Assembly: GCA_017441065.1 (NCBI GenBank)
Contig: JAFSAI010000010.1
Location: 5,378-69,377 of the forward strand
Reading direction: 5' to 3'
Origin: Bacilli bacterium
Lineage (GTDB): Bacteria > Bacillota_I > Bacilli_A > RF39 > UBA660
DNA: 64,000 nucleotides
Below, one piece after another: positions 5,677-61,228 of the stretch. Position 1 is the stretch's first letter, and every line of letters begins with the position of its first letter. The notes beneath the pieces were generated by a model. The model ran no database searches. It was not told where the DNA came from and worked only from the letters and a program-made list of their open reading frames with translations. The translations under genes and the position numbers were made by a program.

Positions 5677-5734
5677 AGATATTTATATCTCTTTTTTGTT
5701 GGATAAAAATTCTCAACAAAAATTTCAAAAAAAT

Positions 5735-5761
5735 TTGACTCCGGGGGGGGTAATATATACT
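5735..5761 (+). promoter_or_regulatory. Family promoter with an 8-nt poly-G tract between the -35 and -10 elements
   Basis: TTGACT (5735-5740), then cc, G8 (5743-5750), taata and TATACT (5756-5761). The spacer is 15 nt. Homologous copies lie at 13021-13050, 14081-14113 and 42494-42521. Confidence 0.55.
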
Positions 5762-5792: not shown

Positions 5793-7493
5793 ATGAGAGT
5801 TGTTAACAAAAAACTTTGGATAATAACGATAACTTTGTTAGTAGTAATAGAATGTGTGTTTACATATCTATCAGTCAAATCATATGGTAATAAAGATATA
5901 ACTGAGATAAAAGAAGAAAATAAAGTAAATAAAGAAATGTTTTCAATGTATGTAGAAAATAAAGATGGAGAATACGTAGAGTATACAGACAGTGAATACT
6001 ATCCAATAGGATTAAAATATTACTTTAATGAAGAAAGAAGTAATTGTACAGATAATAAAGGAAAAGTAGTAAATGACGTAATATCATATAACAATAATAA
6101 AATCACTGTATCAAGCAATAAAACGCTATATTGCTATTTATACTTTGATTTAGATAAAGTACCACCACAAACATTTACCTTTTACTTAGGAGGAAATACA
6201 AATCCAGAATATATAAATAAAACAAGTACAACAGTATACCTTTCATGGACAGATACAGATATAGAAAGTTATTGTATAAATACCGAGACTAATTCAAGTA
6301 CATGTAATTGGGTAAGTGCAAGTGGTAACTCAGTAACTGCAAGTTATACAATAAGTACACAAGGAAATAATACAAGATATGCATTTATAAGAGATGCAGC
6401 AGAAAATATATCACCAGTAGTAAGTGATAGTGGATTTTTAGATAGTGTAGCACCAGTAATAACAAGTGCAAGTGATAGTGGAGCAGGAACAGCAAATGTA
6501 ACAGTAACAGAAACTGGAAGTGGAGTACAATATGTATGTGTAAATACAAGTAGTTCATCTACTACAGGATGCGTATGGGATGAAGTAAGTGGAACAACAT
6601 TTACAAGTACAACACCAGTAACTACAACAGGTAACTATTACATACATGTTAAAGATAAAGCAGGAAATATAGGACATAGAACTAGTGCTATAAGTATTGC
6701 AAAACCTTTAACGTTTGGTGAATATTTAATAAAAAATAAACCAGCGAATTTAAGTTCAACTTTAGAAGCAGGAATGTATAGATATCAAGGAACATATAAT
6801 ATTGTTAAAAATAACTACATATGTTTTGGAACAAATAATAAATCAACATGTACGGGAAATACAGATGCATATATGTATAGAATCATAGGAATACAAGAAA
6901 ATGGTCAAATGAAGTTAATAAAGAAAGAAGCTTTAAATAGTACAGTACAATGGTGGAGTGATTATACAACAGATGTAACATGGCCAAATAGTTTAATATA
7001 TACAACATTAAATGGAAATGATTTCTTGCTAAACGAAACATATGTGCCAACAGGATGGGAGAATAAAATAGCAACAACAACATGGAAATATGGAGATACA
7101 ACAAAAAGTGGTAGTTATGATGGACCAACAATATATGCAATAGAAAATGCTTGGACAACTACAGTAAGTGCAAAGATAGGATTAATGTATATACATGATT
7201 ATTATTATGCATATGCAAGTGGAGGAGCACCAGGAAGTTCTAGTAATGCAAGAACAGCGTGGATAAATTTAAGTAAAAACGACACAAGTGCACCAAGCGA
7301 GTCAGAATGGACAATGTCGCGTTACGGTCTTGATGGTAGTGCTTACCGTGCGTGGCGTACGGATTCGTACGCTAATATCGTCGCTCCAAACTTTAACAAT
7401 GCTATTTCGGTTCGTCCGTTATTTTATCTTGAATCAAATGTTAAATTAATAGGTGGTTCAGGAACATCAACTGATCCATATTTAATAAATTAA
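5793..7493 (+). CDS. Mosaic surface-protein family member A (signal anchor, head, two Ig-like modules, C-module type I carrying a VR-like segment)
   Basis: 566 aa. It has an N-terminal hydrophobic anchor, modules ending RDAAENIS and KDKAGNIGH, and a C-terminus WTMSRYG..AWR..SVRPLFYL..GGSGTSTDPYLIN. Paralogs start at 21644, 30959 and 41218. Confidence 0.8.
   Translation: MRVVNKKLWIITITLLVVIECVFTYLSVKSYGNKDITEIKEENKVNKEMFSMYVENKDGEYVEYTDSEYYPIGLKYYFNEERSNCTDNKGKVVNDVISYNNNKITVSSNKTLYCYLYFDLDKVPPQTFTFYLGGNTNPEYINKTSTTVYLSWTDTDIESYCINTETNSSTCNWVSASGNSVTASYTISTQGNNTRYAFIRDAAENISPVVSDSGFLDSVAPVITSASDSGAGTANVTVTETGSGVQYVCVNTSSSSTTGCVWDEVSGTTFTSTTPVTTTGNYYIHVKDKAGNIGHRTSAISIAKPLTFGEYLIKNKPANLSSTLEAGMYRYQGTYNIVKNNYICFGTNNKSTCTGNTDAYMYRIIGIQENGQMKLIKKEALNSTVQWWSDYTTDVTWPNSLIYTTLNGNDFLLNETYVPTGWENKIATTTWKYGDTTKSGSYDGPTIYAIENAWTTTVSAKIGLMYIHDYYYAYASGGAPGSSSNARTAWINLSKNDTSAPSESEWTMSRYGLDGSAYRAWRTDSYANIVAPNFNNAISVRPLFYLESNVKLIGGSGTSTDPYLIN
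7317..7419 (+). repeat. VR-like segment 1 (diverged match to the template-like repeat at 21024-21132; two codons shorter)
   Basis: It opens with tcgcgttacggt and closes with tcggttcgtccg. It is CpG-rich and adenine-poor in an AT-rich gene. Codons vary where the template-like repeat has AAY. Confidence 0.4.
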
Positions 7494-12908: not shown

Positions 12909-13020
12909 AAAAGAATAGTTAATGCTATTTTTTTTATTGTCGAAAAATGACATACGAAATTAATTTACAATCCATATCTATTGTGATTAAATGAATATGG
13001 AAGTGCTGAATGTGGCGCCG

Positions 13021-13182
13021 CCTAAAACTTACTGAACGGGGAGGTAGTATTGAACCTGTAAAGGAGGTGATAAGCGTATGAAAGTAAAAACCATAAACAA
13101 GTTTTTATTAGTAATAATAATATTAATGTTACTGATTGTATTGGTATCAGAAATAAAAAGCGCCATTCTAATATTAAAATAG
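13021..13182 (+). pseudogene. Decayed family stub 1: promoter homolog with a broken G tract plus a 34-codon signal-anchor ORF
   Basis: aaaacttactgaacGGGGAGGtagtattgaacctgtaaa is homologous to the 5731-5775 promoter. It has the SD aaggaggtga, and the ORF 13078-13182 encodes MKVKTINKFLLVIIILMLLIVLVSEIKSAILILK. Confidence 0.4.
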
Positions 13183-13384
13183 AATAGCGTTGTCATAAAC
13201 TTAGGCGACGTGAAATTCACGCTTCCTAAGAAAAGTATATTATAAGTTAGAATAATATACAAGTATATTTTGGTAGATAAAATATTCAAAGAATAGATTG
13301 CTATTCTTTTTTTCTTTATTCTTTTGTGGCAAATAATAATAAAATATGTTAGAATATACCTCACATTTAAAAAGAGGGATTATT

Positions 13385-14070: not shown

Positions 14071-14290
14071 CAACAAAAAAGTTGCAAAAAATAGACTTCG
14101 GGGGGGGTATAATAAGCTTTACTTATAAAATAAAAAAGATGGTGTAAGTATGAAGTTTATTAACAAAAAAATAATATTAGTAGTAATAATATTAATGATA
14201 GGAATAATACTTTTTGGAATTTCAAAACCAAAAGATAATATAAATTTGAAAGATACACACATATCTTTCTTCCTTTTATTTATTGACTAA
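14071..14290 (+). pseudogene. Decayed family stub 2: intact 8-G promoter, 46-codon signal-anchor ORF and terminator (internal deletion of a 41218-like copy)
   Basis: G8 lies at 14100-14107 and is followed by TATAAT. The ORF 14150-14290 (MKFINKKIILVVIILMIG..) runs into gaaagatacacacatatctttcttcc, the same hairpin found after gene 41218. Confidence 0.55.
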
Positions 14291-20776: not shown

Positions 20777-20861
20777 AGAGACTAAGAAATTTAGTCTTTT
20801 TTTAATTTTTATATTTTTTCTAAATTTTGCAAAACAAAATGTTTTATAGTAAATATTTGCG

Positions 20862-20990
20862 TAAGGAGAGGTGGAAAATTTTGCTGCGTCCACACGCCTG
20901 TATGGTCGAAAAGAGATGGAGTAGAAGGCGGCGGCTCCCCCCTCACAAAAAATAATGACTAATCAATTTGATTAGTTTTTTTCTTTTTTA
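20862..20990 (+). ncRNA. Unassigned GC-rich small RNA candidate with its own promoter and terminator
   Basis: The upstream promoter is TTGCAA, a 17-nt spacer, then TAAATA (20829-20857). The body is GC-rich (ggcggcggctcccccctcac) in an AT-rich background. The terminator is actaatcaatttgattagt plus a T-run (20959-20982). Confidence 0.35.
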
Positions 20991-20996: not shown

Positions 20997-21023
20997 GTAT
21001 ATAGGTAATCTTATGATAAAGAG

Positions 21024-21132
21024 TCGCGTTACGGTTATAATTCCAGCAATAGTCGTTACAATGCGTGGAATGTGAATTCGAGCGGTAACTTGAATAACAA
21101 TAATTTGAATAATGCTAATTCGGTTCGCCCAG
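21024..21132 (+). repeat. DGR-like template repeat (TR) candidate, noncoding and Asn-codon rich
   Basis: 109 nt with no start codon and a stop upstream in frame. By hand count, 14 of 36 codons are AAT/AAC. It has the same length as 22667-22775 and shares its ends (tcgcgttacggt at the 5' end, tcggttcgcccag at the 3' end). Confidence 0.45.
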
Positions 21133-21271
21133 CCCACTATAACTTGAATGATAATATGGTTAAGACTATATTTTTGGGAAGATAGAGGACAAAGATTATC
21201 TAGGACTTTTTTCCAAACAAAAAACGGAGATGGTTTATTTTACGAAATAACCTATTACTCCGTTATTTTTT

Positions 21272-21466
21272 TTATAGAGATTTAATATATTGTGCAACAT
21301 CTTCGTCACTAATATCTAATATAATTATTAATTTTTTTAATGTTTGTAGAGATGGCAAACTTTTTTCTTTTTCAATTCTTTGCATTTGTCGCCATGTAAT
21401 TTCTATTTTATCCGCAAGTTCTTCTTGAGTTAAACCTCGCTTAATTCTGTACTCTTTAAATAACAT
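21272..21466 (-). CDS. XRE-family HTH regulator, divergent from family member B
   Basis: A 64-aa Cro/CI-type HTH (RIKRGLTQEELADKIEITWRQMQRIEKEK). It is a paralog of 30630-30821. Confidence 0.8.
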   Translation of the reverse strand: MLFKEYRIKRGLTQEELADKIEITWRQMQRIEKEKSLPSLQTLKKLIIILDISDEDVAQYIKSL

Positions 21467-21486: not shown

Positions 21487-21578
21487 TATGTCAAAATAAG
21501 CAAAATATTATTATGGTATGAAATGTCATATTTGTTATTGACTTTTATAATTATCAAGCTTTATAATGAATATGACAT
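21487..21578. promoter_or_regulatory. Divergent control region: ATGTCA/TGACAT half-sites bracketing a TTGACT-18-TATAAT promoter
   Basis: Half-sites at 21487-21493, 21523-21530 and 21571-21578. The -35 is at 21538-21543 and the -10 at 21562-21567. Confidence 0.4.
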
Positions 21579-21643: not shown

Positions 21644-22849
21644 ATGAATGGGTTAAGTAAAGTAAGTGTTAGGATTACTATAAGCTTACTAATTATAATA
21701 GAACTTTGTTCTTTATTTTTAGTATATAAGTCTTTTAGTAATAGAAAAATTAATGAAATTAAGGATATTAATACTGTAAATTCTAATAAATTTGCAATGT
21801 ATATAGAACAAGATGATGGTAGTTATAGTGAATATACTGAAGGTAATTTATTTACAATAGATGGCTACATTTTTAATTTAGAAAAATCTAATTGTGTAGA
21901 TAACAAAGGTAATATTGTAAATGATGCATTAACAAATAATGGCAACAAAATTACTATATCAAGTAACAAAACTAGTTATTGCTATTTGTATTTTAGTTTA
22001 CCACCAAATTTATATGATGTGTGTGGAAGTTATGATAAAATGAGTTCTTGTGTAGCAAATGAAAATATTTCTCAGATTGAAGGGGTTAATTCAATAGAAG
22101 CAGGAATGTATAGATATCAAGGAACAGATGCAATGAACTATGTTTGTTTCGGAACAACAGTAAAAAGCGAATGTGTAGGAAATACAGATGCATATATGTA
22201 TAGAATAATAGGAATAAGACCAAATGGCCAAATGAAACTGATAAAAAAAGAAGCACTAAATACTGGAGTAAAATGGTGGGATAATTACACAGATAATATA
22301 GAATGGCCAAGCAGTAATATATATACAACATTAAACGGAAATGATTACTTGTTAAACGAAACATATGTGCTAACAGGATGGGAAAGTAAAATAGCAACAA
22401 CAAGTTGGTATTATGGAGATACAACAACTAATGGTAATTATGACGGAGCAACAATGTATCCGATAGAAAACCCATTCGGAGAATCCACAGCATCAAATAG
22501 ATTCACAAAGACAGTAAGCGCAAAGATAGGATTAATGTATATACATGATTTTTACTATGCATATGCAAGTGGAGGAGCACCAGGAAGTTCTAGTAATGCC
22601 GTAACAGCATGGATCCATTTAAGTAAAAATGATACAAGTGCACCAATTGGTACTGAATGGCCAATGTCGCGTTACGGTCTTAATGGTAGTAATGGTTATT
22701 ACTATGCGTGGCGTGTGTATTCGAACGGTTATGTCACTAGTACTATTTTGAACTATGCTTATTCGGTTCGCCCAGTCTTCTATCTGACATCCGATGTAGA
22801 GATAACAGGTGGAACAGGAATATTAACCGATCCATTTTTAATAAATTAA
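21644..22849 (+). CDS. Mosaic surface-protein family member B (signal anchor, head, C-module type I carrying a VR-like segment)
   Basis: 401 aa. Its C-terminal roughly 250 aa closely match member A, ending SVRPVFYLTSDVEITGGTGILTDPFLIN. Confidence 0.8.
   Translation: MNGLSKVSVRITISLLIIIELCSLFLVYKSFSNRKINEIKDINTVNSNKFAMYIEQDDGSYSEYTEGNLFTIDGYIFNLEKSNCVDNKGNIVNDALTNNGNKITISSNKTSYCYLYFSLPPNLYDVCGSYDKMSSCVANENISQIEGVNSIEAGMYRYQGTDAMNYVCFGTTVKSECVGNTDAYMYRIIGIRPNGQMKLIKKEALNTGVKWWDNYTDNIEWPSSNIYTTLNGNDYLLNETYVLTGWESKIATTSWYYGDTTTNGNYDGATMYPIENPFGESTASNRFTKTVSAKIGLMYIHDFYYAYASGGAPGSSSNAVTAWIHLSKNDTSAPIGTEWPMSRYGLNGSNGYYYAWRVYSNGYVTSTILNYAYSVRPVFYLTSDVEITGGTGILTDPFLIN
22667..22775 (+). repeat. VR-like segment 2 (same length as the template-like repeat)
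   Basis: Its ends are identical to 21024-21132. Internal codons differ mainly where the template has AAY (for example aat to cgt, tat, act or att). The scaffold codons lack adenine. Confidence 0.5.
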
Positions 22850-30629: not shown

Positions 30630-30821
30630 TTAGATTTTCATAAATTTTACTAAATCTTTATCGCTAAATTCTAATACTAATAATATTTTTTTAATTGTTT
30701 CAAATTTAGCTACATTATATTTACCATTTTCAATTCTTTGCAAATTTCTCCAAGAAATATCACATTTTTCTGCTAACTCTTCTAGAGTATAGCCCTTCTT
30801 TATTCTATATTCCCTTATCAT
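30630..30821 (-). CDS. XRE-family HTH regulator, divergent from family member C
   Basis: 63 aa from the ATG at 30821 (RBS gggtga). MIREYRIKKGYTLEELAEKCDISWRNLQRIENGK. It is a paralog of 21272-21466. Confidence 0.75.
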   Translation of the reverse strand: MIREYRIKKGYTLEELAEKCDISWRNLQRIENGKYNVAKFETIKKILLVLEFSDKDLVKFMKI

Positions 30822-30866
30822 ACTTTCACCCTTCAGGTAAATTATTACATTCTCGAAGTTCTTGTT

Positions 30867-30886
30867 GTATGTCTTCTGTGACATAC
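30867..30886. promoter_or_regulatory. Inverted repeat GTATGTC-n6-GACATAC (candidate XRE operator)
   Basis: A perfect 7-bp inverted repeat in the XRE / member C intergenic region. It shares the ATGTC/GACAT core with the sites at 21487-21578. Confidence 0.35.
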
Positions 30887-30958
30887 ACAAAAATTGCTGC
30901 TTAGATATAATTTTATTGATGATAGGTTTCAAATAACGATTAAGAGAGGGTTAAGATT

Positions 30959-32863
30959 ATGATAAAAAAATATTCTAAAGTTTTAATTGTTTTACTTTTA
31001 TTAGTTGAATTTACATTTGTGTTTTTAAGTATTAAATCATTTAATAATAAAGATATAAAAGAAATCAAAGAAGAAAATAAAGTAAATAAAGAAATGTTTT
31101 CGATGTATGTAGAAAATAAAGATGGAGAATATGAGGAATATACAGATAGTGAGTACTATCCCATAGGATTAAAATACTACTTTAATGAAGAAAGAAGTAA
31201 TTGTACAGATAATAAAGGTAAAGTAATAAACGATGTAATATCATACAACAATAATAAGATAACAGTTAGTAGTAATAAAACATTATTCTGTTATTTGTAC
31301 TTTGACTTAGATAAAATACCTCCCCAAACATTTACCTTCTACTTAGGAGGAAATACTAATCCAGAATATATAACTAGTACAAGTACAACAGCATATCTAT
31401 CATGGACAGATAATGATATAGAAAGTTATTGTATAAATACTGAAAATAATTCAAGTACATGTAATTGGGTAAATACAAGTGGAAATACAATAACCCCAAG
31501 TTATACAATAAGTACACAAGGAAGTAATACAAGATATGCATTCATAAGAGATGCAGCAGAAAATATATCACCAGTAGTAAGTGACAGTGTATTCTTAGAT
31601 AGTGTAGCACCAGTAATAACAAGCGCAAGTGATAGTGGAGCAGGAACAGCAAATGTAACCGTTACAGAAACAGGAAGTGGAGTAACATATGTATGTGTAA
31701 ATCAAAGTAGTACATCTACAACAGGATGTACATGGGATGAAGTAAGTGGAACAACATTTACAAGTACAACAGCGGTAACAGCAACAGGTAGTTATTATAT
31801 CCATGTTAAAGATAAAGCAGGAAACATAGGGCATAAAACAAGTGCGATAAGTATTGCTAAACCAGTTTGGAATTTATATACATTATGTTCAAAATATAGC
31901 AACATAGATTTATGTGAACAAAATGAAAATTTGGAAGATGTTGATGGAATATGGAATAGTACATTAGAAGATGATGGTTACCGATATGTAGGAACAAATC
32001 CAAATAACTATGTATGTTTTGGAACAACAAATAAATCAACATGTACAGGGAATACAGACTTGTATATGTATAGAATAATAGGAATATTTGAAGATAGTTC
32101 AGGCAACCAACACTTGAAACTAATAAAAAAAGAAGCATTAAACACTAAATATAAGATGCATAGTACGTATAGCGTAGACATAGATTGGGATGAAATGCAA
32201 TTGTATAAAGAAATAAATGGCAGTTATTTTCTAACAAACACAACATATAGTTATATGCAAAATAGTGCTTGGTTAGAAAAAATCAGTAATTGGGATTGGA
32301 CTGCGGCTAATTCAGGATATTATCCTAATCATGGTTCTAATTATTATTACATGACTCCACAAGCTGTATACATACACGAACTAAATCGAAGCACAAAAAC
32401 AAATCAAAAATGTTACAATAATTATAGTTCCAACGGTTTTACAACAGCAGATTGTAGTGTAGGAGAATGGAAAGAAGTAACAACAAAAATAGGATTAATG
32501 TATGTAAGTGATTATATGTTATCTTTAGGGGCAAGTTTTTTAGATTTATGGTGTGGAAATTATAATTTAGGAGCGGCGTCACTAAATACTGAAGCTGTTT
32601 CAAATGTGTTAAAAACAGGTTGGCTGAATTTGAAAAATAGCGATTCTTCTCCTCCTAATCCAGGAGAATGGACAATGACAATTGCTGGAGCCACTTCCAA
32701 TCCTATTGAATATGCCTATATTATAAATACTAATGGTACAATAGTAGTAACTGGAATTGCAGGAACTAATAATTGGTCAGTTCGCCCAGTCTTCTATCTG
32801 ACATCTGATATAAAAATTACTGGAGGAACAGGCTCATCAACCGATCCATTCCTAATAAATTAA
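30959..32863 (+). CDS. Mosaic surface-protein family member C (signal anchor, head, two Ig-like modules, C-module type II)
   Basis: 634 aa. The N-terminal roughly 300 aa are near-identical to member A. The C-terminal half resembles member D and ends SVRPVFYLTSDIKITGGTGSSTDPFLIN. Confidence 0.8.
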   Translation: MIKKYSKVLIVLLLLVEFTFVFLSIKSFNNKDIKEIKEENKVNKEMFSMYVENKDGEYEEYTDSEYYPIGLKYYFNEERSNCTDNKGKVINDVISYNNNKITVSSNKTLFCYLYFDLDKIPPQTFTFYLGGNTNPEYITSTSTTAYLSWTDNDIESYCINTENNSSTCNWVNTSGNTITPSYTISTQGSNTRYAFIRDAAENISPVVSDSVFLDSVAPVITSASDSGAGTANVTVTETGSGVTYVCVNQSSTSTTGCTWDEVSGTTFTSTTAVTATGSYYIHVKDKAGNIGHKTSAISIAKPVWNLYTLCSKYSNIDLCEQNENLEDVDGIWNSTLEDDGYRYVGTNPNNYVCFGTTNKSTCTGNTDLYMYRIIGIFEDSSGNQHLKLIKKEALNTKYKMHSTYSVDIDWDEMQLYKEINGSYFLTNTTYSYMQNSAWLEKISNWDWTAANSGYYPNHGSNYYYMTPQAVYIHELNRSTKTNQKCYNNYSSNGFTTADCSVGEWKEVTTKIGLMYVSDYMLSLGASFLDLWCGNYNLGAASLNTEAVSNVLKTGWLNLKNSDSSPPNPGEWTMTIAGATSNPIEYAYIINTNGTIVVTGIAGTNNWSVRPVFYLTSDIKITGGTGSSTDPFLIN

Positions 32864-40239: not shown

Positions 40240-41127
40240 ATGAAAAATGATATAGAGTTAAATAAAAATATAGAAGATTATTTAAATTATTTGCAATATG
40301 AAAGAAAACTGTCAAAAAATACTTATGCATCATATCGTTATAATTTAATTAAAATATCTGAATTTTTTAAAGATGAAGATTTAATTAAATTAAACGAAGA
40401 TGATATTAGAACATTTTTATATAATTCAAAAGAGAGTAGTAAGACAAATGCTCACTATTTAACTGTATTAAAATCATTCTATAATTATATGTTAGATTTA
40501 AATAGAATTAGCATTAATCCATGTGAAAATATAAAGTCTCCTAAGTTAGATAAAACACTACCTAAATTTTTAACTGAAGAAGAAATGGATAAATTACTTA
40601 ATATGAGACTTCAAAAACCAATAGATTATCGTAATAAAGCTATGCTTGAATTATTGTATGCTACAGGAATGCGTATATCTGAACTTCTTAATTTAGAATT
40701 ATCTAATATTAATAGAGAAGATGCTTCGGTAAAAGTGATGGGCAAAGGAAAAAAAGAAAGAATTATTCCTATGAGCGATATCACTATTAAATATTTAGAT
40801 TTATATATAAATGAATATAGAAATTACATACTTAAAACAAAACAATCTGAATATTTATTTGTAAATTATAATGGTGGTAGAATGTCTAGGCAAGGATTCT
40901 TTAAAATATTAAAACAATTATGTGATGATGCTTGCATAAAAAAAGAAATATCTCCTCATATATTAAGACATTCCTTTGCAACTCATTTACTTAATAATGG
41001 GGCAGACCTACGTATTATTCAAGAATTATTAGGTCACGAAAATATATCTACTACTGAAATATATTCTCATATATCTAATGAAAAAATAAAAAAAGATTAC
41101 GAGAAACATCCTCATTATTATGAATAG
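40240..41127 (+). CDS. xerD: Tyrosine recombinase XerD/XerC-type
   Basis: N-terminal SAM-like domain. The catalytic region is R..ELL.L, HILRHSFATHLL and LLGHENISTTEIYSH. The C versus D assignment is tentative. Confidence 0.75.
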   Translation: MKNDIELNKNIEDYLNYLQYERKLSKNTYASYRYNLIKISEFFKDEDLIKLNEDDIRTFLYNSKESSKTNAHYLTVLKSFYNYMLDLNRISINPCENIKSPKLDKTLPKFLTEEEMDKLLNMRLQKPIDYRNKAMLELLYATGMRISELLNLELSNINREDASVKVMGKGKKERIIPMSDITIKYLDLYINEYRNYILKTKQSEYLFVNYNGGRMSRQGFFKILKQLCDDACIKKEISPHILRHSFATHLLNNGADLRIIQELLGHENISTTEIYSHISNEKIKKDYEKHPHYYE

Positions 41128-41217: not shown

Positions 41218-42462
41218 TTAGCCAATAATATATGGATCATTAGACAATCCCGTTCCACTTATCAATTTTGCATCGTTGGTTAGATAGAAGACTGGACGTA
41301 CTGATTGTATATAATGCGCATAAGACGAACTTACAGGAAATTCATCATGAACAGCTATATAAGCTCTATATGTCCAAGCAGACATACCAGAGCGAGTCAT
41401 TGTCCAATCATTTGAGCTAGGAGGAGTTGAATCGTTATTTTTAACTTGAATCCACCCAAATTTAAAATTGTTGTTACCATATACATTTGTTTCCAAATAA
41501 TCTTCACCTCTAGATAAAACAAAGTCACTTATATACATCAGGCTGATTAATCCATTAAAATTTTTGTGATTTCCTATTGAACAATCTCCAACAATATCAG
41601 GTGAATTATAACATATTTGATTACTTTTGTTAGACATATTTAATTCGTGCAAATAGATTGTTTTAGGTGTATTATAATCATATATGATTCCCGCTCCATC
41701 ATATAAAGCATCGGTAGCAGTCCACATCCATTCACTTATTTTATCTGTCCATTCTTCATTTTGCATATATGAGTACGTTGTATTGTTCAAAAAGTAATCT
41801 CCATTTATCCCTTTATATAAATCACTTTCATTCCAATCTACTTCTATCGAACTATCACTATGCCATTTATACGCTGTATTAAGTGCCTCTTTTTTTATAA
41901 TTTTTAAATGTTCATTACCTTCATTATCTTCGAAGATTCCGATTATTCGATACATATACAAATCTGTATTACTTGTACATGTTGTTTTGTTTGTTGTTCC
42001 AAAACATATGTAATTATTTGGATTTTCTCCTACATATCTATATCCATCGCCTTCTAATGGACTATCCCACATTTCAGATTTTTGTTTTCTATATGGCGGT
42101 AAACTAAAATACAAATAACAATAACTAGTATTTCCAGTATCTACTGTTGCTATATTATTTGTAGCATCATATGTTAGTACTCCATCTAATTTATTGCCAT
42201 TTATATCTATACATCCTGACATTGATGCATTATATGTATATCCTGAAGTTGGCCAAGTACTTGATGTATCTTCTTTATATGTTCCGTCATCTTGCTCTAA
42301 CATTATTGCAAACATATTTGAATTATTTATATTTAAATTTACTTCATCTAAATTTGTATTCTTATTACTGAATGACTTGTACATCAAGAACAATGTACAA
42401 CTTTCTATTATCACTAACACTAATATTATTATCACACACATTTTTTTGTTAACAACTTGCAT
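41218..42462 (-). CDS. Mosaic surface-protein family member D (signal anchor, head, C-module type II)
   Basis: 414 aa. MQVVNKKMCVIIILVLVIIE.., EGDGYRYVGENPNNYICFGT.., ending SVRPVFYLTNDAKLISGTGLSNDPYIIG. Confidence 0.8.
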   Translation of the reverse strand: MQVVNKKMCVIIILVLVIIESCTLFLMYKSFSNKNTNLDEVNLNINNSNMFAIMLEQDDGTYKEDTSSTWPTSGYTYNASMSGCIDINGNKLDGVLTYDATNNIATVDTGNTSYCYLYFSLPPYRKQKSEMWDSPLEGDGYRYVGENPNNYICFGTTNKTTCTSNTDLYMYRIIGIFEDNEGNEHLKIIKKEALNTAYKWHSDSSIEVDWNESDLYKGINGDYFLNNTTYSYMQNEEWTDKISEWMWTATDALYDGAGIIYDYNTPKTIYLHELNMSNKSNQICYNSPDIVGDCSIGNHKNFNGLISLMYISDFVLSRGEDYLETNVYGNNNFKFGWIQVKNNDSTPPSSNDWTMTRSGMSAWTYRAYIAVHDEFPVSSSYAHYIQSVRPVFYLTNDAKLISGTGLSNDPYIIG

Positions 42463-42493: not shown

Positions 42494-42521
42494 AGTATAT
42501 ATTACCCCCCCCCGAAGTCAA
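42494..42521 (-). promoter_or_regulatory. Family promoter with a 9-nt poly-G tract
   Basis: On the minus strand it reads TTGACT, tc, G9 (42505-42513), taata, TATACT, giving a 16-nt spacer. Confidence 0.55.
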
Positions 42522-42603
42522 ATTTTTGAGAAAATTTTGTTGGTAACTTTTAACCACAAAAAAGAGAAGACAATAAATCATGTCTTCCTTACAAAGTAAT
42601 AAA

Positions 42604-61151: not shown

Positions 61152-61228
<77 letters not shown>

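Follow-up and report, generated by a model that had tools for sequence, protein, structure and literature searches.

Three promoters of one paralogous gene family in the window (the whole 64-kb stretch of DNA that was analyzed) carry a run of eight or nine G residues between the -35 and -10 hexamers, and we consider it probable, at roughly three chances in four, that these sites are poly-G slipped-strand switches through which transcription of the family genes would undergo phase variation. The tract holds the same position in related promoters of uncultured gut Bacilli, its length differs between near-clonal genomes, and it leaves the two hexamers 1-2 bp short of the spacing used by other promoters in the same loci. 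The comparison of related and near-identical sequences backs the earlier note on this DNA, which had read the sites as slipped-strand transcriptional phase variation.

G tracts in the promoters of window paralogs

The earlier note had placed G8 tracts upstream of gene 5793 and of a family stub, and a G9 tract on the minus strand upstream of gene 41218, and all three strings were found at those positions (Table 1). Each tract had been described as standing right after a TTGACT-like -35, and the hexamers are indeed TTGACT at the two intact genes and TAGACT at the stub. Between the end of each tract and the ATG lie 42 nt, and in the intact genes the promoter hexamers, which are near-consensus, lie ~30 nt 5' of a ribosome-binding site and ATG. 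With a G+C content of 25.9%, the window contains only two other G or C runs of at least 6 nt, C6 at 20937-20942 within a skipping-rope RNA and C6 at 61213-61218 within tRNA-Ile; the remark that such runs are very rare elsewhere thus agrees with our count, in which the remaining runs are confined to RNA genes. The pattern GGGGGGGG has four matches (at three sites) versus 0.03 expected from shuffles, and G8 runs are ~100-fold commoner in the window than in shuffled sequence. A consensus promoter scan restricted to spacers of 16-18 nt did not call the 5735 promoter. The Rfam scan of the window identified no RNA family at the G-tract promoters, and a riboswitch or leader RNA reading of these promoters was rejected for this reason.

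At the stub, whose start codon is at 14150 and not at 14151, the proposed G8 tract is present, but the abutting TATAAT (14108-14113) was rejected as the -10 because the spacer would then be only 10 nt; alignment to intact paralogs places the -10 at TAAGCT instead. The counterpart of the stub is a 447-aa gene (P0021) that stands intact upstream of hisS in other strains (L210-L212; also L216-L221). A deletion of ~1.26 kb took most of this paralog and left an orphaned promoter, which has G8 in the window. The 234-aa protein encoded upstream of the stub returned no record on look-up.

A fourth, decayed copy of the promoter had also been claimed at 13038-13044. The string GGGGAGG is present there, but a blastn search with the upstream region of the family gave no similarity at this place, and we have dropped this site as a family promoter. 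The string stands before an ORF (13078-13182) encoding a strongly hydrophobic peptide of 34 aa, MKVKTINKFLLVIIILMLLIVLVSEIKSAILILK. This ORF lies inside a transcript (12999-13228, plus strand) with long-range 5'-3' pairing between 13007-13025 and 13201-13219 (MFE z-score -3.5), and in these features the transcript resembles a type I toxin mRNA.

Table 1. Positions of the promoter elements, G tracts and family genes discussed in the text (window coordinates unless a locus is named)
Feature	Position	Strand	Remarks
-35 hexamer TTGACT, gene 5793	5735..5740	+	Aligns with the TTGAC[AT] of all 43 parsed G-tract family promoters
G8 tract, gene 5793 promoter	5743..5750	+	Spacer 5741-5755, 15 nt, ccGGGGGGGGtaata (ccG8taata)
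-10 hexamer TATACT, gene 5793	5756..5761	+	Aligns with the TATAAT of related promoters
Family gene 5793	5793..7493 (ATG 5793)	+	566 aa; N-terminal hydrophobic segment; no match in Pfam or NCBIfam
-35 hexamer TTGACT, gene 41218	42516..42521	-	String located
G9 tract (C9 on plus strand), gene 41218 promoter	42505..42513	-	Spacer tcG9taata, 42500-42515, 16 nt
-10 hexamer TATACT, gene 41218	42494..42499	-	String located
Family gene 41218	41218..42462 (ATG 42462)	-	414 aa; AlphaFold2 model with helix 5-31, disordered linker and beta-rich domains
-35-like TAGACT, stub promoter	14092..14097	+	Followed by tc and G8
G8 tract, stub promoter	14100..14107	+	Followed by TATAATAAGCT (tataaTAAGCT)
TAAGCT, stub position homologous to -10	14113..14118	+	Spacer 15, by alignment with intact paralogs
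Family stub	14150..14290	+	46 aa; remnant after an internal deletion of ~1.26 kb
Family paralog lacking a G tract	21644..22849	+	Upstream TTGACT-N18-TATAAT starting at 21538
Family paralog lacking a G tract	30959..32863	+	Divergent HTH_3 (XRE-type) gene upstream, 30630-30932, minus strand
Intragenic G tract	L016 1369-1379		Hadza gut genome CAKOMQ01
Intragenic G tract	L022 1487-1496		Hadza gut genome CAKOMQ01
Intragenic G tract	L024 1407-1415		Hadza gut genome CAKOMQ01

Besides the 46-aa stub, the window encodes four full-length paralogs, two of which lack a tract. The upstream regions of these two are entirely different from the G-tract cassette, and each has a divergent small gene in the place of the tract. 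The gene upstream of 30959 is a confirmed XRE-type HTH_3 regulator; that upstream of 21644 is a 64-aa ORF (21272-21466, minus strand), a helix-turn-helix regulator by look only, and is accompanied by a normally built promoter (Table 1). This arrangement suggests that the tract-less paralogs may be under regulated, rather than stochastic, control.

Tract-length differences between near-identical contigs

We compared the tracts with those in contigs of other samples that encode identical proteins; the variation described here is thus variation between samples. At site 5743, where the window has G8, one contig (L083/L208, ERZ27256804) has G9 and otherwise 0 mismatches over 4701 nt, and G8 is found again in contigs L084 and L209. 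At site 42505, where the window has G9, contigs L085 and L086 have G8 with otherwise 0 mismatches over 3.2 and 2.9 kb, respectively, and G8 is also present in L001, from a 97.8% identical strain. At two sites, therefore, G8 versus G9 is the sole difference between near-clonal sequences, which is a mark of promoter-spacer phase variation. The stub at site 14100 has G8, and its intact 447-aa ortholog (P0021) has G9 in 6/6 other samples. Another paralog, P0047, whose protein is identical in three samples, has promoters with G8, G8 and G9, and two more of its contigs start within the tract.

As a control, A/T runs of at least 7 nt in the same regions were inspected, and 12/12 were invariant. Only the tract length varies on a constant background, and it does so reproducibly, which argues against pure sequencing noise. 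Tract lengths nevertheless cluster tightly (G9 in all six samples at P0021, and G8 in 29 of the 43 related promoters considered below), indicating that the tract is not wildly unstable.

Several contigs break at a tract: L213 and L215 end inside that of site 42505, L087 and L002 begin just past it, and the ends of L228, L229, L026 and L027 also lie inside G tracts. We considered such ends as proof of heterogeneity within samples and downgraded them; paralogs share the flanking cassette, and the breaks are ambiguous for this reason.

Conservation and spacing in related loci

The related set comprised 80 loci (298 kb) from genomes of uncultured gut Bacilli. With one exception, each G run of at least 7 nt in these loci marks the 5' end of a family gene and has the same strand as the gene; it sits in the promoter or, in one genome, within the reading frame. 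C runs of at least 7 nt are absent from the 298 kb. The exception is in L051, a locus from the Hadza genome, in which G10 (758-767) lies in non-coding DNA with flanks like those of the intragenic tracts described below (G10-caagaaacaaac); it is probably what is left, in decayed form, of the 5' part of a family gene.

Forty-three G-tract promoters could be parsed in the related loci. The -35 is TTGAC[AT] in 43/43, and the -10 is exactly TATAAT in 42/43, the remaining one being CATAAT. The layout found in the window, with a homopolymer between the hexamers as in promoter-spacer phase variation, is therefore also that of 43 related promoters. The earlier remark that copies differ in length extends from G8 versus G9 between window promoters to a range of 6 to 10 among the related ones, with 6 nt in two promoters, 7 in three, 8 in 29, 9 in eight and 10 in one. 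The resulting spacers measure 13 nt (one promoter), 14 nt (three), 15 nt (21), 16 nt (15-16), 17 nt (one) and 19 nt (one).

Promoters of the same loci that have exact hexamers and no tract are spaced differently: 16 have spacers of 17 nt, three have 18 nt, and none has 15 or 16 nt, and several of them precede family paralogs. This peak at 17 indicates that these organisms use the ordinary 17-bp optimum. A scan of metagenome sequence with the pattern TTGACWYC-N5-14-TAWTATATAMT served as a further control on spacing; the matches listed are generic promoters with no family locus among them, and the 120 unrelated matches among those listed likewise peak at 17 (47/120), none with a G-only gap. The proposal that one or two more G would bring the tract to a 17-nt spacing is thus in accord with both comparisons: G-tract spacers are mostly 15-16 nt, and non-G promoters peak at 17. 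On this basis, the G-tract promoters look like consensus promoters held 1-2 bp short, as would be expected if most of a population had a spacing switch in its off or low state.

Most G-tract promoters have a small conserved hairpin or palindrome ~20 nt 5' of the -35. Its arms are TGTTG and CAACA, the length of its loop varies (6-11 nt), and a T or A run usually comes after it. It was located at 5697-5722 and 42543-42568 (minus strand) in the window and in L018-L036. This element could act as an insulating terminator, provide an UP-element context or serve as a regulator site.

Poly-G tracts within reading frames

In the human-gut genome CAKOMQ01 (Hadza), three paralogs carry poly-G 17 codons into the ORF (Table 1). 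The G9 allele is in frame and gives an 816-aa ORF; the G10 and G11 alleles are frameshifted and reach a stop at 48 and 29 aa, and in these the long ORF (913 and 793 aa) goes on in another frame. With these in-frame and out-of-frame alleles, the family would thus also use poly-G as a translational switch in a sister lineage. A tract inside the ORF, the hallmark of translational phase variation, was found only in these three loci (L016, L022 and L024) and in none of the window paralogs.

The gene family and its host

Common to the family proteins are a hydrophobic segment and a small domain, both N-terminal, and a ~280-aa C-terminal domain that ends in SVRPVFYL. The AlphaFold2 model of the 414-aa paralog is confident (mean pLDDT 82) and places a helix at the N-terminus, with beta-rich domains after it. 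Searches of Pfam, NCBIfam and a PDB sequence profile, and of the PDB with Foldseek, gave no significant match that would point to a function, and the N-termini of the family contain no typical lipobox (E occupies -1 or -2 before Cys). From the predicted N-terminal helix, we consider that the proteins are anchored in the membrane at the N-terminus and probably located at the cell surface.

Searches found 774 homologs in the protein database and 465 among GTDB species representatives. Every named match and each of the 80 retrieved loci comes from metagenome-assembled genomes (MAGs) of uncultured 'Bacilli' or 'Mycoplasma sp.', the sources of which include rabbit, human (Hadza) and chicken, and a single genome holds at least 18 family loci. 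The MreC and M23 peptidase encoded in the window indicate that the host organism is walled.

Diversity-generating repeats

In locus L053, a template repeat (2849-2923) and a variable repeat (2534-2608), the latter at the 3' end of family gene 1468-2697, align over 75 nt without a gap. All 14 mismatches fall at adenines of the template (14/27 A; 0/48 non-A). By this pattern the gene is a canonical target, at its C-terminal end, of a diversity-generating retroelement (DGR), and no reverse transcriptase was found within the 4.2-kb locus. The repeat pair implies that the C-terminal segment of the family (...AW.V...G......L.....VRP) is a DGR-diversified ligand-binding region, and the presence of a DGR target fits the notion of a ligand-binding surface protein.

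The window contains a related arrangement upstream of gene 21644. At 21023-21140 (plus strand) the 3' end of this gene (22666-22783) recurs as a non-coding copy rich in Asn codons (..AWNVNSSGNLNNNNLNNANSVRPA..), 75% identical over 118 nt. The mismatches are enriched at adenines and not exclusive to them (14/35 A versus 15/83 non-A); for this reason, the copy looks like a decayed or non-cognate DGR template. The window ORFs scanned include no reverse transcriptase. Just ahead of the copy, at 20861-20946 (plus strand), stands a skipping-rope RNA, an orphan motif (Rfam RF02924, 40.4 bits). A link between this RNA and the template-like copy was considered and is not supported in L053, where no skipping-rope RNA lies beside the clean template.

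Proposed mechanism and alternative explanations

In the mechanism that we propose, each site would be a sigma-A (sigma-70-type) promoter with a hypermutable poly-G between the TTGACT -35 and the TATACT -10. Slipped-strand mispairing at replication would gain or lose one G, and the spacing of the hexamers would follow the tract, at 15 bp with G8, 16 bp with G9 and 17 bp with G10. We predict that G8 corresponds to a low or off state, G9 to an intermediate state and G10 to maximal transcription. Through the spacing, transcription of the downstream gene would be turned on or off, or adjusted in level, in a stochastic and reversible manner. With one independent switch per paralog, a population would be expected to show changing combinations of family members. 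The rarity of the predicted fully-on spacer of 17 nt, present in 1/43 promoters, counts against the switch reading.

A different view would be that the tract is a fixed cis-element of the family promoter, such as a regulator contact or a spacer of special geometry, held by purifying selection; differences of 1 nt would then be neutral or slightly deleterious, and a trans factor would set expression. Such an element would not leave consensus hexamers mis-spaced by 1-2 bp while promoters of the same loci use 17, nor would it readily account for lengths of 6 to 10 among paralogs with identical flanks or for the variation between near-clonal genomes. It does accommodate the clustering of lengths at G8 (29/43) and the G9 shared by 6/6 samples at one locus, as well as the invariable orientation of the tract, with G on the coding strand, and its fixed position 3' of the -35; the conserved TGTTG..CAACA palindrome could be the regulator site, and two paralogs have an XRE-type regulator instead of a tract (one confirmed as HTH_3, the other a similar-looking ORF). 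The promoters match no Rfam family, however, and the frameshifted intragenic alleles of the Hadza genome make sense only as a switch. On balance, we regard a fixed cis-element as unlikely.

In this family, conservation is far higher in the promoter than in the coding sequence. Promoter identity is 84-88% for window paralogs that share ~40% at the protein level; a 5' cassette, made up of the promoter and ~400 nt at the start of the coding sequence, shows 88-98% identity among paralogs that over the remaining 3' two-thirds are only 40-70% identical. A cassette of promoter, leader and N-terminal module might accordingly have been spread by recombination or gene conversion, with the G tract as a passenger devoid of a regulatory role, and a tyrosine recombinase gene does adjoin gene 41218. 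Spread of this kind is compatible with phase variation, as vlp genes of Mycoplasma also share a conserved promoter region (PMC10502178). It would explain how the tract was distributed, but neither its persistence across many species in a 26% G+C genome nor the spacing shortfall; moreover, the promoters are not surrounded by inverted repeats, and in other strains the recombinase gene lies among conserved housekeeping genes, as expected of an Xer-type enzyme. We therefore hold a mere passenger to be quite improbable. An invertible promoter was likewise considered and rejected: no convincing inverted repeats flank the promoters, and the recombinase gene (40240-41127), in its housekeeping neighborhood, gives no sign of inversion.

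That errors of sequencing or assembly account for the length differences, the tracts being biologically stable, is scarcely credible, since the lengths are reproducible (G9 in 6/6 independent samples at one locus; G8 in three independent contigs at 42505), dozens of paralogs and species have the tract at one and the same place in the promoter, and the in-frame and out-of-frame alleles of the Hadza genome are coherent with the ORF structure, even though many contigs break at the tract and a 1-nt difference between assemblies, G8 or G9, could in principle be a consensus error. Long homopolymers raise the rate of indel errors in Illumina data, poly-G being a known difficulty.

The slipped-strand switch therefore remains our preferred reading of these promoters.

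Implications

If the switch reading is correct, these genes, with their hundreds of paralogs, may be the first contingency-gene family to be described from walled, uncultured Bacilli of the gut. Their display would be diversified by poly-G in the promoter, by intragenic poly-G as found in a sister lineage and, for one relative or more, by DGR adenine mutagenesis; we would give this broader view even odds. Among commensal Firmicutes, such a family would correspond to the Mycoplasma Vlp and Neisseria Opa/PorA systems. If its members each have a tunable promoter, uncultured Bacilli of the gut and rumen would vary their surface stochastically, and phage, host immunity and competitors are possible pressures for such variation.

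There are also practical consequences. G tracts fragment metagenome assemblies, and they would make phase states look like differences between strains. The frequencies of tract-length alleles in reads offer a testable marker against metatranscriptome abundance.

Comparison with known systems

Phase variation through simple repeats is textbook knowledge in Neisseria, Haemophilus, Campylobacter, Helicobacter, Treponema and Mycoplasma. Our literature searches found no description of such tracts or of phase variation in uncultured gut Bacilli.

The porA gene of N. meningitidis has poly-G between the -10 and -35 (PMC3639595), and the length of its tract sets the spacing and a graded expression (PMC3639595, PMC7864442). 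The family described here resembles porA in having a G homopolymer in the promoter spacer of a surface-protein gene, with the surface exposure predicted in our case. Unlike porA, which is a single gene of a Gram-negative pathogen, the tract here belongs to a whole paralogous family in low-G+C gut Bacilli; no relationship links its proteins to PorA, and an effect of the tract on expression is predicted.

In T. pallidum, tp0126 has poly-G between the -35 and -10 and is transcribed optimally at a 17-nt spacing, and several paralogous putative surface-protein genes (tpr) have poly-G of 7-12 nt in their promoters, with lengths that vary within isolates (PMC7864442). The presence of poly-G promoters on several paralogous genes for putative surface proteins is shared with our family, and the logic proposed here, a switch for every gene of the family behind a conserved promoter, is likewise that of tpr. 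T. pallidum is, however, a spirochaete and not a Firmicute, the tract of tprE/G/J/L lies just upstream of the start site, and there is no sequence relationship.

The intragenic tracts of the Hadza paralogs, G9 to G11 in the 5' coding region, are comparable to the intragenic poly-G loci of Neisseria (lgt/hmbR) and Campylobacter (PMC2192423, PMC6321876), from which the window copies differ in their transcriptional layout, the tract lying upstream of the ATG.

Within Mycoplasma, the vlp genes of M. hyorhinis have promoter poly-A, with one switch per membrane-anchored surface protein, a conserved promoter and combinatorial on/off expression, and Vmm of M. mycoides has TA repeats in the promoter spacer (PMC10502178). 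Our family is like vlp in that it is a multigene family in which a simple repeat in a strongly conserved promoter would serve as the switch of each individual gene, and like Vmm in that the repeat lies in the spacer. It differs from both in its repeat, which is poly-G here and poly-A or TA there. Vlp proteins are lipoproteins, whereas this family lacks a typical lipobox and the other features that define the Vlp lipoprotein family; Pfam and NCBIfam searches detected no homology to Vlp, and the host here appears to be walled. The proposed mechanism is a classical one, as known from porA, tp0126 and vlp, and the gene family and the organism are new.
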